Shown piece by piece: positions 4,197-56,283 of a DNA stretch of 64,000 nt. A model generated the notes under the pieces. That model had not been told where the DNA came from, made no database searches, and saw nothing but the letters and a program-made list of their open reading frames with translations. Source of the DNA: Eledone cirrhosa (lineage: Eukaryota); contig OZ024745.1 of the NCBI GenBank assembly GCA_964016885.1, forward strand, positions 106,826,001-106,890,000, in the 5' to 3' direction. The position numbers and the translations under genes were made by a program. Numbering within the stretch: position 1 is the first letter of the stretch; each line of letters begins with the position of its first letter.

Positions 4197-4425
4197 TGTT
4201 TGACCCCGACGGTAGAGCTCAAGTCGTTTCGACGGCTATTTCCGGACTAAACAGTCTAGAAATAACCGTCGAAACGGCTTCAGCTCTGCTGTCGGCGTCA
4301 AACATTTTCCTATTACCCACTCTACTACCGTAAGTATTGAGTACTCTGGTGTGTTATGGTCCATCTGGTTCCTTACCACACCTCCTTCGTTATATATATA
4401 TAACGAAGGAGGTGTGGTAAGGAAC
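4197..4425 (+). mobile_element. Fold-back element family P1 (palindrome plus tail), with a short inverted tail copy
   Basis: Palindrome of ~110 bp at 4197-4305, tail CCTATTACCCACTCTACTACC..TGAGTACTCTGG..CCTTCGT, then (TA)n and an inverted tail piece at 4401-4425. Confidence 0.8.
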
Positions 4426-4757
4426 ATCTTGTTCAGTCAAACAAAGCCGTACGTTAAAACTACCCACGGCGCAGATTACTCACAACCTCTAACTGAACTA
4501 CCTATAACGATAATTTGTTATCCCATATATATATATATATATATATATATATACATACATAGATTCAGAGAGCGAGAGTTTATTCCACAACAATTACCAA
4601 ACGATACTCGTGGAATTAACTCTGCACTGGAATCGTCCTTTGGAGTGAGTGCTCTACCAACTTCGCATATATATATATATATATATATATATATATATAT
4701 ATATATATATATACATACACACATATATATAATTATTAAGGCCAGTTACGACAATTG

Positions 4758-4925
4758 AGCCATACAAGGAACCTACGTTTCGTTGGCCCAGAGGACGAAC
4801 ATTTTTAACCTGTGTCAGTGGAACTTGGGCCTCCGGACCAACGAAACTTACGTTCCTAGTATGGCTACGAACTTGAGTTGCTCTCGCGTTCTACCTTGGA
4901 TATTTATACTAAGTTATTACCACAA
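4758..4925 (+). mobile_element. Fold-back element (distinct family) with half-hammerhead motif
   Basis: Inverted arms AGCCATAC..GTTTCGTTGGCCCAGAGG and CCTCCGGACCAACGAAACTTACGTTCCTAGTATGGCT. Tail contains TGAGTTGCTC. Sits between TA-rich tracts. Confidence 0.55.
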
Positions 4926-4976
4926 TATATATATATATATATATATATATATATATATATATATATATATATGTGT

Positions 4977-5130
4977 AGGAAAATGTTTAACCCCGACGGC
5001 AGAGTTCAAGCCGTTTCGACGGCTATTTCTAGAGAGAAATAGCCGTCGAAACGGCTTGAGCTCTACCCTAAGTATTGAGTACTCTGGTGCATTATGGTCA
5101 ATCTGGTTCCTTACCACACCTCCTTCGTTA
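4977..5130 (+). mobile_element. Fold-back element family P1, internally deleted
   Basis: Same palindrome and tail as 4197-4391, with the end of the right arm deleted. Confidence 0.8.
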
Positions 5131-5147
5131 TATATATATATATAAAA

Positions 5148-5370
5148 ATCATCATCATCATCACTTTACGTCCGTTCTTCCATGCTAGCATGGGTGAGAC
5201 GGGTTGTCCTGTTTTAGGCAGTGTCCGGTCGGCTGACCTTGTTTTGTTCATACAGGAACTGATTCTGGCTTGATTTCTACAGCTGGATGCCCTTCCTAAC
5301 ACCAACCTCATTTACAGTGAGTGCTGGGTGCTTTTTTCCGTGGCGCCTACACGTCCACTTTGCAGTGGAA
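5148..5370 (-). mobile_element. Short retroelement with (GAT)n tail (RTE-tail-like SINE family 3)
   Basis: Close inverted match to 40265-40515. Starts with (ATC)n followed by TTTACGTCCGTTCTTCCATGCTAGCATGGG. Confidence 0.75.
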
Positions 5371-53000: not shown

Positions 53001-53423
53001 TATATATATATATATATATATATATATATATATATATATATATTTATATATATATATATATATTTACATATAAATATATATATATAAATATATATATATA
53101 TATATATAAATATATATATATAAATATATATATATAAATATATATATATAATATATATATATAAATATATATAAATATATATATTTATATATATATATAT
53201 AAATATATTTATATAATATATATATTTATATAAATATATATATTTATATATATATATATATTATATATATATATATGTATAAATATATATATTTATATAT
53301 ATATATATATATATATATATAAATATATATATTTATATATATAAATATATATATATATAAATAATGTATATATGCATATTTATATATAAGAATACATATA
53401 TATAAATATACCTATATATAACA

Positions 53424-53740
53424 TATATTAGTAAAAAGGAAAAGGAAATGCTGACAAAATTTTCCTAGTGAAAAATAGTTTAATTTGGAATAAGTATAAA
53501 TTAGTAATAAGTATTAGTTAGTATTCATTTTTAGATTTAAGTTTTTACCGGTTGCGCATCTCAAAATTATTTTTGAAAAGCATAAGAAATGCGCAACCGG
53601 TAGAAACTTATAACTGAATACTAACTAATACTTATTACTAATTTATACTTATTCCTAATTAAACTATTTTTCACTGGGAAAAATTTGTCAGCATTTTCTT
53701 TTCCTTTTTAGCAATATATCACAACTCGTGTGTCACACCT
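53424..53740. mobile_element. Long AT-rich fold-back element (~135-bp arms)
   Basis: AAAAAGGAAAAGGAAATGCTGACAAA...TACCGGTTGCGCAT / ATGCGCAACCGGTA...TTTGTCAGCATTTTCTTTTCCTTTTT. Confidence 0.75.
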
Positions 53741-53774
53741 ATATTTTTTAAATATAAATATATATATAAACATA

Positions 53775-53963
53775 TAGGAACAAGTATGACCCCGACGGCA
53801 GAGCTCAAGGCGTTTCGACGGCTAATTCTGAATTAGCCGTCGAAACGTCTTGAGCCCTGCCGTCGGGGTCATACTTGTTCCTATTACCCACTATACTACC
53901 CTAAGTATTGAGTACTTTGGTGCGTTATGGTCCATCTGGTTCCTTACCACATTTCCTTCGTTA
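53775..53963 (+). mobile_element. Fold-back element family P1
   Basis: Palindrome TAGGAACAAGTATGACCCCGACGGC...GCCGTCGGGGTCATACTTGTTCCTA plus tail. Confidence 0.85.
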
Positions 53964-55970
53964 TATAAACATATATAAATATAAACATAAATAAATACAT
54001 ATAAACACATATATATAAATATAAATATACATATAAACATATATATATAAATATAAATATACATATAAACATATATATATATATAAATATACATATAAAC
54101 ATATATATATAAATAAATATACATATAAACATATATATATATAAATAAATATACATATAAACATATATATATATATATAAATAAATATACATATAAACAT
54201 ATATATATATATATAAATAAATATACATATAAACATATATATATATATATAAATAAATATACATATAAACATATATATATATATATAAATAAATAAATAT
54301 ACATATAAACATATATATATATATATAAATAAATAAATATACATATAAACATATTATATATATAAATAAATATACATATAAACATATATATATATATATA
54401 AATAAATATACATATAAACATATATATATATAAATATAAATAAATATACATATAAACATATATATATATAAATATAAATAAATATACATATAAATATATA
54501 TATATATAAATATAAATAAATATACATATAAATATATATATATATAAATATAAATAAATATACATATAAATATATATATATATAAATATAAATAAATATA
54601 CATATAAATATATATATATATATATATATATATAAACATATATAAATATAAACATATATATATATATATAAATATATAAATATAAATAAATATACATATA
54701 AATAAATATATAAATATAAATAAATATACATATAAATAAATATACATATAAATAAATATACATATAAATAAATATATATATATACACACATAAATATACA
54801 TACATATATATATATACACATATATATATAAATATACATACGCACATATATACATGTATATGGACAAGCCAATGCATGCAGTCATATAGACTCACACATG
54901 TGTAAGTATCTGGATGTCCATGTGAGTTATATGTGCCAATTGTAGCTTACAAGACAAATAGAATACGTATGCATAAGTGTGTATATGTGAACATAATTTA
55001 ACGTATCACTGCCTTTCAAACTAGGTGTTTTAAAGCTGGTAATTCTGCTTTTACCCCCTTTCAATTAATCATGTTAATTATTTCTCTCCCCCTCTCCCTC
55101 ACACACACACACACACACACACACACACACACAAATGTGTGTGTGTATATATATATATATATATATATATATATATATATATATATATATATATATATAT
55201 ATACACACATAATGTGTTTGTAGTTCACAACTCCGTTCATTGAGAGTGTTTACCACAGCTGTCATTATCTCAATTTGCCTATCCCAACTGGTAGCTTTGA
55301 ATACGGTGGACGTCAACCGTTACCCTGCATTAATAAGCAGATAGAGATATCCAAAAATCATTACCAATTTACTGGTCTGTGGTGACCAATGCCATTAAAC
55401 AATAAACACACAAAAAAAAAAAAAAAAAAAATACACACCAGCTCAGCAAGCTCTTTAGTTTCTATATATCCCTACAGGACATTTGTGTGCATTGCATAAT
55501 TTCAATTGATAGGATTGATAGCATAACTCCAATTGATCGCAACTTTGGCAACTCACAATAATATAACACATGAAAGACTATCGTGTAGCTGTTTTTTTAA
55601 TATGTAGAAAGCTCCCCTGATGTGTATTTTCCTCACCCACATTTTTTTGTTTCATCAATGATGACTTCAGCGGCACTAATCGTTAAACTAAGCGTTCCAC
55701 TACTCCGTGTATTCTTCGGTTGGTTTAGGAACCGAGTGGTTATTTATTACAGGCAGACAAAATGGAGTGACGAGAACGAAATCAAAACGAAGAGGAGATA
55801 CAAAGTATAAAATTAATAATCGAGAAGGTCATAATTATAACACTATCTGGTGACTAACCTAATACCTGACCAATAATATACCCGAAGCGAAAATCATCTG
55901 GCCAGAGTGTTTTTATTGGCAGCGTGACCTCGGCAACGCATAATTTGTATGTGTATATGTATATATACAT

Positions 55971-56283
55971 AAACGGCTTGAGCTCTGCCGTCGGAGTCTT
56001 GAACATTTACCTATTACCCACTCTACTACCCTAAGTATTGAGTACTCTGGTGCGTTATGGTCCACCTGGTTCCTTACCACACTTCCTTCGTTATATATAT
56101 ATATATATAACAAAGAGGGTGGACCACAACGCGCCAATACTTAAGGTAGTAGAGTGGGTAATAGGAAAAGAATCAGGACCTCGACGGCTGAGTTCCTGTC
56201 GTTTCGACAGCTAGATCCGAATCTAGTTCGGATCTAGCTGTCGAAACGGCAGGAACTCAGCCGCCGGCGTCCTGACTCTTTTC
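55971..56283. mobile_element. Two tail-to-tail P1-family elements (55971-56092 plus; 56109-56283 minus, variant palindrome)
   Basis: P1 right arm and tail, (TA)n, a deleted inverted tail, then palindrome GAAAAGAATCAGGAC...GTCCTGACTCTTTTC. Confidence 0.75.

Follow-up and report, generated by a model that had tools for sequence, protein, structure and literature searches.

Four families of short fold-back units in the window, by which we mean the whole 64,000-nucleotide stretch of Eledone cirrhosa DNA analysed here, are the ends of coding Penelope-like elements (PLEs). On the evidence of their protein motifs, P1, B (the family of 14235 and 49958) and D (that of 12452) are assigned to the 3' ends of Hydra-clade PLEs, and C (that of 5915) is read as the terminus of a Neptune-type PLE, a clade assignment made by motif only, with broken ORFs. 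The first-pass annotation had read the units as PLE pLTRs carrying hammerhead ribozymes (HHRs), and this was right; all four families could be traced to PLEs with a reverse transcriptase (RT) and a GIY-YIG endonuclease. In our judgement the copies of P1, B and D are quite likely 5'-truncated pLTR-plus-tail copies of coding Hydra-clade elements, and those of C of a Neptune-type element, made at each insertion. The other named families, including E (that of 11770), probably have the same nature.

A palindrome followed by an unpaired tail within (TA)n, the architecture first described from the letters of the window, is seen for P1 and at 4758, 6088, 11770-11980, 12452, 38613 and 53424. At 4560, also listed as a fold-back, the tail of a relative of family D is present and the arms are short only. 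The description of the families as unrelated in sequence was partly right: 6088 is kin of the 14235 family, 4560 is kin of the 12452 family, and the parents of P1, B and D are homologous. P1 has 8 tail-bearing matches within the window, plus a diverged copy near 12840. The features are, by position in the window:

4197..4392, plus strand: P1 copy with inverted arm, direct arm, 77-nt tail and the 3' half only of the HHR
4428..4525, plus strand: 3' end of a further Hydra-type family, absent from the first-pass list
4563..4667, plus strand: tail of an older relative of family D
4735..4925, plus strand: decayed fold-back, with a U3-A8 HHR in family relatives
4975..5130, plus strand: P1 copy, internally deleted
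5826..6087, minus strand: family C, 5'-truncated 3' end of a PLE that is Neptune-type by motif, with a minimal HHR (core 5945) and no inverted arm
6088..6225, plus strand: decayed relative of family B (core 6161)
8463..8660, plus strand: P1 copy
10520..10680, minus strand: decayed HHR (core 10632, with one change)
11770..11980, minus strand: family E fold-back, degraded copy
12125..12222, plus strand: U3-A8 HHR with a long stem II (core 12132), read by eye
12452..12660, plus strand: family D, two HHR-bearing arms (cores 12518, minus, and 12539, plus) and a tail
12828..12975, plus strand: diverged P1-type copy, limits approximate
14149..14277, minus strand: family B, truncated at the HHR core and without an inverted arm, corresponding to the 3' end of an intact Hydra element
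31208..31402, minus strand: P1 copy
31425..31540, minus strand: 3' end of PLE type whose minimal HHR is complete (core 31527)
38110..38304, minus strand: P1 copy
38613..38786, plus strand: 3' end downstream of its family's canonical minimal HHR, the copy itself lacking an HHR
49940..50005, minus strand: family B arm without tail, with an HHR (core 50000, 4-bp stem I)
53424..53735, plus strand: fold-back with a UUGAAAA core and GCAA replacing GAAA
53783..53961, plus strand: P1 copy
55975..56091, plus strand: P1 copy without inverted arm
56118..56264, minus strand: diverged P1-type copy, tail to tail with the preceding one

Most of these copies are inert remnants. Among their relatives elsewhere in the genome, those of the tail at 4563..4667 have UUGAAAA or UUGAAGA cores, those of 53424..53735 keep GAAA, the 10520..10680 family has intact cores at other sites, and family E has a conserved CAGAAGA (U4A) core. 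The HHR at 12125..12222 was missed at first, and its relatives are intact in the genome sample. A relative of 4428..4525 with 75% similarity continues into a Hydra N-terminus (locus L167). Positions 8200-8900 show high repeat depth in the contigs of three runs, which revealed neither an empty site nor the ends of the copy.

Longer copies continue straight into RT plus GIY-YIG ORFs, a link that had been proposed as a check. The P1 tail leads into a 5' UTR and a single intact ORF of 717 aa within 3,531-bp head-to-tail arrays. Family B has a pLTR-ORF arrangement with a single intact ORF of ~713 aa, as well as inverted pLTRs joined to ORF fragments. In family D, RT, linker and GIY-YIG lie immediately upstream of the D UTR in partial ORFs. 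At one family C locus (L126), RT motifs, a CSRPRC (CSRPRCNTC) linker and GIY-YIG occur in order and contiguous with the UTR; the element body is common to the fetched loci, and the linker fits the Neptune-type criterion of a C-terminal endonuclease with CX2-5CxxC. Parents that carry ORFs are 96-98% identical to the short copies. For instance, the direct arm of 8463..8660 matches the 3' end of an intact Hydra element at 128/134 nt (locus L267), family D at 12452..12660 matches the end of another at 125/130 nt (L360), and family B at 14149..14277 matches a third at 126/128 nt (L186).

The clade assignment follows the Hydra definition in the accessible text of PMC8557442. The RWK-type motif as RWR, and the change from DKG to DKT, are present in the P1 and B parents, on which this test rests, the D sequence having been recovered without that region. 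The CxCX5C linker, and CxxC and CxH around a conserved E and N, are found in the P1, B and D parents alike, and the Hydra-type parents also have the (TA)n insertion, the pLTR, the tandem or inverted copy and the tail. Pfam gave a weak GIY-YIG match to a B fragment (E 2e-4, below cut-off), and neither an RT nor a GIY-YIG match to the whole proteins. Within the window, a tblastn search with a Hydra protein gave no match, in agreement with the earlier statement that no such ORF is present there. No ORF tie was found for family E within 1.5-kb flanks of 30 loci. At one locus (L121), the ORF between B arms includes a nested insertion from another Hydra family.

The inverted repeats and TA flanks would also suit MITEs of the usual sort or another TA-targeting fold-back DNA transposon. 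This reading is highly improbable: the ORF links refute it for P1, B, C and D, the HHR cores are conserved, and the two ends of a unit differ, the 3' end being fixed and the 5' end variably truncated, where MITEs have symmetric terminal inverted repeats and uniform length.

The units had further been taken for a diverse population of non-autonomous ribozyme retroelements. For P1, B, D and C this is unsupported: their longer copies continue into the ORFs, and 5' ends and fold-back centres vary copy by copy. A retrozyme-type population is likewise unsupported for these four, since the window has no tandem repeats of a non-coding HHR monomer, the retrozyme criterion; the P1 tandem unit is 3.5 kb long and coding. 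Metazoan non-LTR retrozymes share the type I HHR and the PLE connection in the accessible text of PMC7229834 and Li et al. 2026 (10.64898/2026.07.22.740005), where they are non-coding HHR-monomer tandems, whereas the traced families are coding-element ends and non-tandem in the window. Still, palindrome-plus-tail units could be non-autonomous elements, retrozyme- or SINE-like, each transcribed as a unit and copied in trans by PLE proteins. PLE derivatives of such type are already published, the families at 4560, 4758, 6088, 11770, 38613, 53424 and 10594 have no traced ORF (their relatives have an HHR-like motif), and dozens of P1 copies are 98-99% identical across the full unit, centre included; a short master copy could also account for the one identical centre common to many P1 copies. 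However, the query behind these copies itself selected that centre, many centres occur among tail-selected and incidental copies, half of the ribozyme is missing from the short P1 units, and close ORF-bearing parents exist. We consider this alternative unlikely. Taken by themselves, the units are unremarkable PLE remains, best filed as Penelope-like ends and not as MITEs, SINEs or retrozymes.

Inner arm ends pile up at a distance of ~130-140 nt from the end of the tail, at a putative initiator-like A, often with an extra G. Among tailed P1 arms, 54/102 end at -150..-131 and 4/102 are longer; the inverted arms start at -77 in 41/57 and end at -145..-131 in 48/57. This sample left out full-length arrays and included some re-fetched loci, and divergent subfamilies shortened the alignments. 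In family B, where the query required 128 nt, 24/31 rows end at -135..-126. An extra G precedes the putative +1 A in 9/9 B arms, against 4/22 at neighbouring breaks, and in 12/21 P1 arms, against 7/46, with +1 positions chosen after the peaks had been seen and many of the P1 G and C bases explicable also as microhomology with the other arm. An evenly spaced sample gave 2/2 for B and 4/5 for P1. The base before the break in family E is G in 3 cases and C in 4. Family D arm ends are broadly spread; G was found in 19/19, but the query contained that very centre, and among tail-selected arms with overlaps dropped, 0/8 scored arms (24 loci) break at +1 with G.

It is an evenly balanced question whether the inner ends are the capped 5' end of the transcript and the short copies strong-stop-like cDNAs joined head to head. 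P1 3' ends are fixed at two sites, the end of the tail and a point 77 nt short of it, which would be two RT start sites by analogy with PAc biochemistry (accessible text of PMC11167929). The element endonuclease would nick a (TA)n tract on each strand and the RT would copy a short RNA stretch from each nick, fold-backs likely arising anew per insertion. Reverse transcription would have two start sites close to the 5' end of the capped RNA made from the element itself, and would stop where this template ends at the cap, leaving a strong-stop-like cDNA of ~60-140 nt per nicked strand, and head-to-head joining of both cDNAs would produce the palindrome-plus-tail scars. Such scars would map the transcription start to the base, at -138/-142 in P1 and at -134 in B, where it would coincide with the base that opens hammerhead stem I. 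Longer copies would call for a jump to the 3' copy carried by the RNA, or for an RNA of several units, in the manner of LTR elements. Tandem precursors are the predicted substrate of HHR cleavage. We hold this reading as a whole, with two starts, cap run-off, joined cDNAs and start mapping, tentatively and at slightly less than even confidence.

A different route from the same PLE origin is that the RT stalls at the folded hammerhead or a sub-hairpin and a single cDNA snaps back on itself, or, in a variant proposed in PMC3846280, self-primes on antisense RNA; in either case the extra base would be an ordinary untemplated addition. The pile-up indeed lies at the HHR 5' edge in B, D and E and at a stem II sub-hairpin in P1, local hairpins could seed the annealing, and the broad D ends fit. 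Yet the tail-less P1 arm extends further 5' than the tailed arm in 23/57, which a single self-folding cDNA cannot give, the G is concentrated at a single position in B, and the P1 pile-up is ~40 nt downstream of the core and thus not at the HHR edge. We find stalling rather unlikely. A splice acceptor (YAG at the putative +1 of P1 and B) is rejected for now, as no constant upstream exon was found in 59, 81 and 34 broken arms. The pile-up is also off the predicted self-cleavage site (P1 -97, B -89); the P1 arms beginning at -96/-97 (3/102) are too few for use.

Parts of the joined-cDNA reading have counterparts in other systems. In the accessible text on PAc/Poseidon (Frangieh et al. 2024, PMC11167929), both strands are cut and extended, targets are AT-rich, and two internal RT start sites define the tail; the clade is different, and inner arm ends and the formation of head-to-head junctions lie outside that account. 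L1 twin priming also joins two primed cDNAs per insertion, and an extra G marks the cap at cap-reaching 5' junctions, whereas the two parts of an L1 inversion are copied from neighbouring segments of one RNA and both arms here copy one stretch (accessible text of PMC11702581). A cap or untemplated-base signature in PLEs was not found in the literature searched, which left most subscription papers outside; the stop at an initiator-like A with an extra G suggests a lead for which we found no published precedent. How PLEs build inverted ends is called an open question in PMC3846280 and in the accessible text of PMC8557442, and with very many young scars and intact parents at hand, the model of twin cDNAs and cap run-off lends itself to a direct test.

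Turning to the hammerheads, the seven CUGANGA..GAAA motifs reported earlier were each found in place. As separate elements they do not stand, being six insertions of five families, mostly damaged: 12485 and 12535 are both arms of a single palindrome and hence one insertion, and 14235 and 49958 belong to family B. A three-stem descriptor passes three window motifs, all on the minus strand (50000, 12518 and 31527), the last absent from the earlier list. The stem I 5' strand is lost at 14277, cores 6161 and 10632 are decayed when compared with relatives, 12539 has a mismatch in stem I, and stem I of 5945 is 2 bp family-wide. The parents of P1 and B, family D and 3-4 motifs of the window have a type I core with three helices; it is missing from the short P1 copies, 6161, 10632 and 14277. 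Window P1 copies have no CUGANGA-type core and lack the 5' half of the ribozyme. We dropped the idea that the P1 parent has no hammerhead, which came from the lack of CUGANGA in its unit: it has a full predicted three-way fold with a UUGAGAA core, and the descriptor misses it because of the U3-A8 core and the stem II region of ~55 nt.

Chance matches are rare: 20 block shuffles of the window together yielded 1, and the reversed window 0. An evenly spaced genome sample of 400 kb, drawn from two chromosomes only, held 48 HHR matches against 0, 0, 0, 1 and 0 in five shuffles. This amounts to ~1 per 8 kb, in agreement with the one per 10 kb first proposed, and extrapolates from these two chromosomes to roughly 3-4 x 10^5 motifs in the genome. 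Covariation from C3-G8 to U3-A8 is thin in a strict relaxed-core scan (22 CG and 1 TA among 26) and clearer in the comparison between families. Three targeted Rfam/Infernal-type scans, the check first suggested, gave no hammerhead match, and the best 150 of 707 rows of a whole-window Rfam scan were all microRNA families below gathering scores. These HHR variants fall outside what the Rfam models caught.

Much of this is in line with published PLEs. The Hydra clade of C-terminal EN+ PLEs, which includes Hydra-1_Obim (Craig et al. 2021, PMC8557442), shares in its accessible text RW[KR], DKT, the CxCX5C linker and the endonuclease CxxC and CxH, as well as (TA)n targets, inverted 5'-truncated copies with a tail at one end, and a type I HHR near the 3' end that is often U·U-closed (ctgatgat..tgaa, File S2). 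The literature already describes the inverted copy with tail, (TA)n targeting, U3-A8 as well as U·U variants, and a Hydra family from octopus. Compared with that text, the present genome has several very-high-copy families, some in intact 3.5-kb tandem arrays, tails of 55-80 nt where 30-40 were described, and a P1 parent with a U3-A8 core and a ~55-nt stem II region. As with the minimal hammerheads of PLEs (Cervera and de la Pena 2014, accessible text of PMC4209133), there are single motifs from truncated PLEs, opposite-strand pairs, a U3-A8 variant, an extra nucleotide after A9 and a palindromic stem III, whereas family E keeps a U4A core. The same text gives about 4,000 motifs for coelacanth and 9,000 for Xenopus, against ~1 per 8 kb here. 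The value of these elements lies in this scale, with many families in the sample, and in natural core variants that are ready for assay, namely U3-A8 with a long stem II and U4A.

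The asymmetric fold-backs embedded in (TA)n that the first-pass annotation described are present in the window. All seven hammerhead cores that it listed are real motifs, but they fall in only six insertions of five families. Its observation is partly confirmed. A three-stem descriptor passes three window motifs (12518, 31527 and 50000, all on the minus strand), compared with one match in total over 20 shuffles. In the assembly containing the window (3.0 Gb), an even sample of 40 stretches of 10 kb from contigs C1 and C2 gave 48 passes versus 0-1 per shuffle. This is a density of one hammerhead per ~8 kb, with motifs frequently arranged as two-arm pairs. 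When core positions 3, 4, 7 and 8 were left unconstrained, C3-G8 was kept in 22 of 26 distinct motifs and U4 in 23; stem III was perfectly palindromic in 14 of the 21 motifs where it was short. Targeted scans with Rfam models detected none of these motifs. Separately, a CUGACGA core at 2181 (window 2110-2310, minus strand) has its GAAA-hairpin upstream instead of downstream.

The features below are window copies of families linked to RT and GIY-YIG sequence, and the arrays of the P1 parent:

5826-6087, window: family C
12452-12660, window: family D
14149-14277 and 49940-50005, window: family B copies
C1 91.47-91.49 Mb, C1 437.20 Mb and C2 11.10 Mb (fetched loci L265-L269): arrays of an intact Hydra PLE (Penelope-like element) of 3.5 kb, head-to-tail

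The P1 tail, the unpaired 3' end found 18 times in the 400 kb of the even sample, continues into a 5' UTR and a 717-aa ORF. Its parent (128/134 nt identical to a window copy) forms head-to-tail arrays of 3,531-3,546 bp units, which are probably very young since the units are near-identical. The C1 91.49 Mb array also has a long run of a repeated ~50-nt ORF fragment at its 5' end. CUGANGA is absent from both strands of three of the fetched array stretches, but the predicted fold of the parent is that of a full type I hammerhead, in which the core reads UUGAGAA and stem II is long. It shares the U3-A8 core feature with published PLE hammerheads, for which such cores, pairs on opposite strands and lone motifs left by truncated PLEs are already described (PMC4209133). 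All window P1 copies are broken within or past stem II, so none can act as a ribozyme by itself.

Family B copies have a fixed 3' end within (TA)n and variable 5' truncation, and a tail-less inverted arm is common. Longer copies carry a UTR of ~500 nt and a TA/TG tract leading to GIY-YIG and RT, and complete units of terminal repeat (pLTR) and ORF (~713 aa) were found; the 14149-14277 copy matches its parent at 126/128 nt. Family D (window copy 125/130 nt identical to its parent) sits immediately behind RT, linker and GIY-YIG sequence. Stem II is closed by U·U in B and D, as it often is in Hydra-clade elements; the ctgatgat..tgaa closure and Hydra-1_Obim are already given in the supplement of PMC8557442. 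The proteins of P1 and B contain RWR and DKT, and those of P1, B and D contain CxCX5C, CxxC and CxH; the diagnostic set of the clade is RW[KR], DKT, CxCX5C, CxxC and CxH (PMC8557442). By these motifs, the three parents are Hydra-clade PLEs. Family C is Neptune-type by motif, because it is contiguous with RT, a CX2-5CxxC linker and GIY-YIG.

The proposed link to RT and GIY-YIG ORFs was found for P1, B, C and D, and the earlier interpretation is partly supported: judged from sequence, the traced families add new members to PLE clades already known, and most of the copies are dead 3' fragments. Pieces of Hydra ORFs turned up in 8 of the 40 even-sample stretches but nowhere in the window. The 6088 element is related to family B and the 4560 element to family D, and relatives of those at 4758, 10594, 11770, 38613 and 53424 carry hammerhead-like motifs. 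Family E (window 11770-11980; 30 copies at L362-L391) has a high copy number, good stems I and III and a conserved predicted U4A core, CAGAAGA, in nearly all 30 copies (the query contained that core) and in two even-sample motifs. No ORF was found within 1.5 kb of the copies at L362-L391. A small contig (G000:C118:11622-11795) holds an exact duplicate of the 38613 copy and its flank, probably a haplotig.

The arms, the halves of these palindromes, have preferred ends. In a P1 junction set excluding full-length arrays and centre-selected matches, with some loci fetched more than once, 41/57 inverted arms start 77 nt before the tail end. Ends at ~131-150 nt before it account for 48/57 inverted and 54/102 tailed arms, and only 4/102 tailed arms extend beyond. 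In 23/57 it is the arm lacking a tail that extends further in the 5' direction, which argues for formation from two cDNAs rather than one snap-back. Such palindromes have been proposed to arise by self-priming on an antisense template (PMC3846280). The Poseidon-type element PAc cleaves AT-rich DNA on both strands and extends each of them, and the tail is defined by two internal sites where RT starts (PMC11167929). By folding, a bulged hairpin lies behind the inner 3' end of P1, B and D, and also behind the P1 tail end, the B tail end having a simpler hairpin only. Chimeric junctions (among L039, L051 and L338) join a P1 arm to the B UTR, the start of the P1 ORF to the 3' end of P1 itself, and a palindrome of B type to the D ORF, which suggests template switching between PLE RNAs.

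In family B, 24/31 rows end at -135..-126 from the tail end, the query imposing a floor at -128. The P1 and B inner ends differ from the predicted cleavage sites and coincide with an A in pyrimidine-A context, which we take to resemble an initiator. The transcription start site lies within Penelope pLTRs. In the cap run-off reading, cDNA synthesis of the arms would reach the capped 5' end of the transcript and stop there. With the putative +1 chosen after the end peaks were seen, a G absent from the parent precedes B arms broken exactly there in 9/9 cases vs 4/22 nearby; for P1 the counts, confounded by microhomology, are 12/21 vs 7/46. In the even sample they are 2/2 for B and 4/5 for P1. At L1 junctions, an extra G is a signature of the cap (PMC11702581). 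Weighing against the cap reading, family D gave 19/19 from a biased query, not reproduced in a tail-selected set, and family E is split on the base at the break. The main rival explanation is that arm ends reflect RT stalling at RNA structure. We hold the cap run-off step tentatively, at close to an even chance. A splice-acceptor origin of the end pile-up was provisionally rejected, as 59, 81 and 34 broken arms showed no constant exon upstream. The modest interest of these elements rests on hammerhead density and on this testable lead on inverted-junction formation.

Other repeats and a host gene were seen in the window:

1905-2090, 7230-7400, 8680-8830, 9100-9260: very abundant short interspersed repeat
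17985-18160, 19610-19990, 38975-39165, 41125-41690 and others: more copies of the same repeat
9305-9395, 14299-14375, 29220-29300: family of small, imperfect palindromes that have CAGGGTGT-like ends and adjoin (TG)n
24214-24768, minus strand: host repulsive guidance molecule gene exon (Pfam RGM_C 1e-23, RGM_N 4e-8; GDPH motif)
35493-35665: GC-richer 40-bp tandem repeat, 4.3 copies, adjoining an assembly gap
42901-53428: 10.5-kb degenerate TA satellite containing the 49958 insertion

The abundant repeat often forms inverted pairs, has a contig depth far above P1 and is by eye unrelated to the hammerhead families. The small palindromes are more MITE-like than the PLE ends. The window's repeats may be located within the repulsive guidance molecule gene or next to it.
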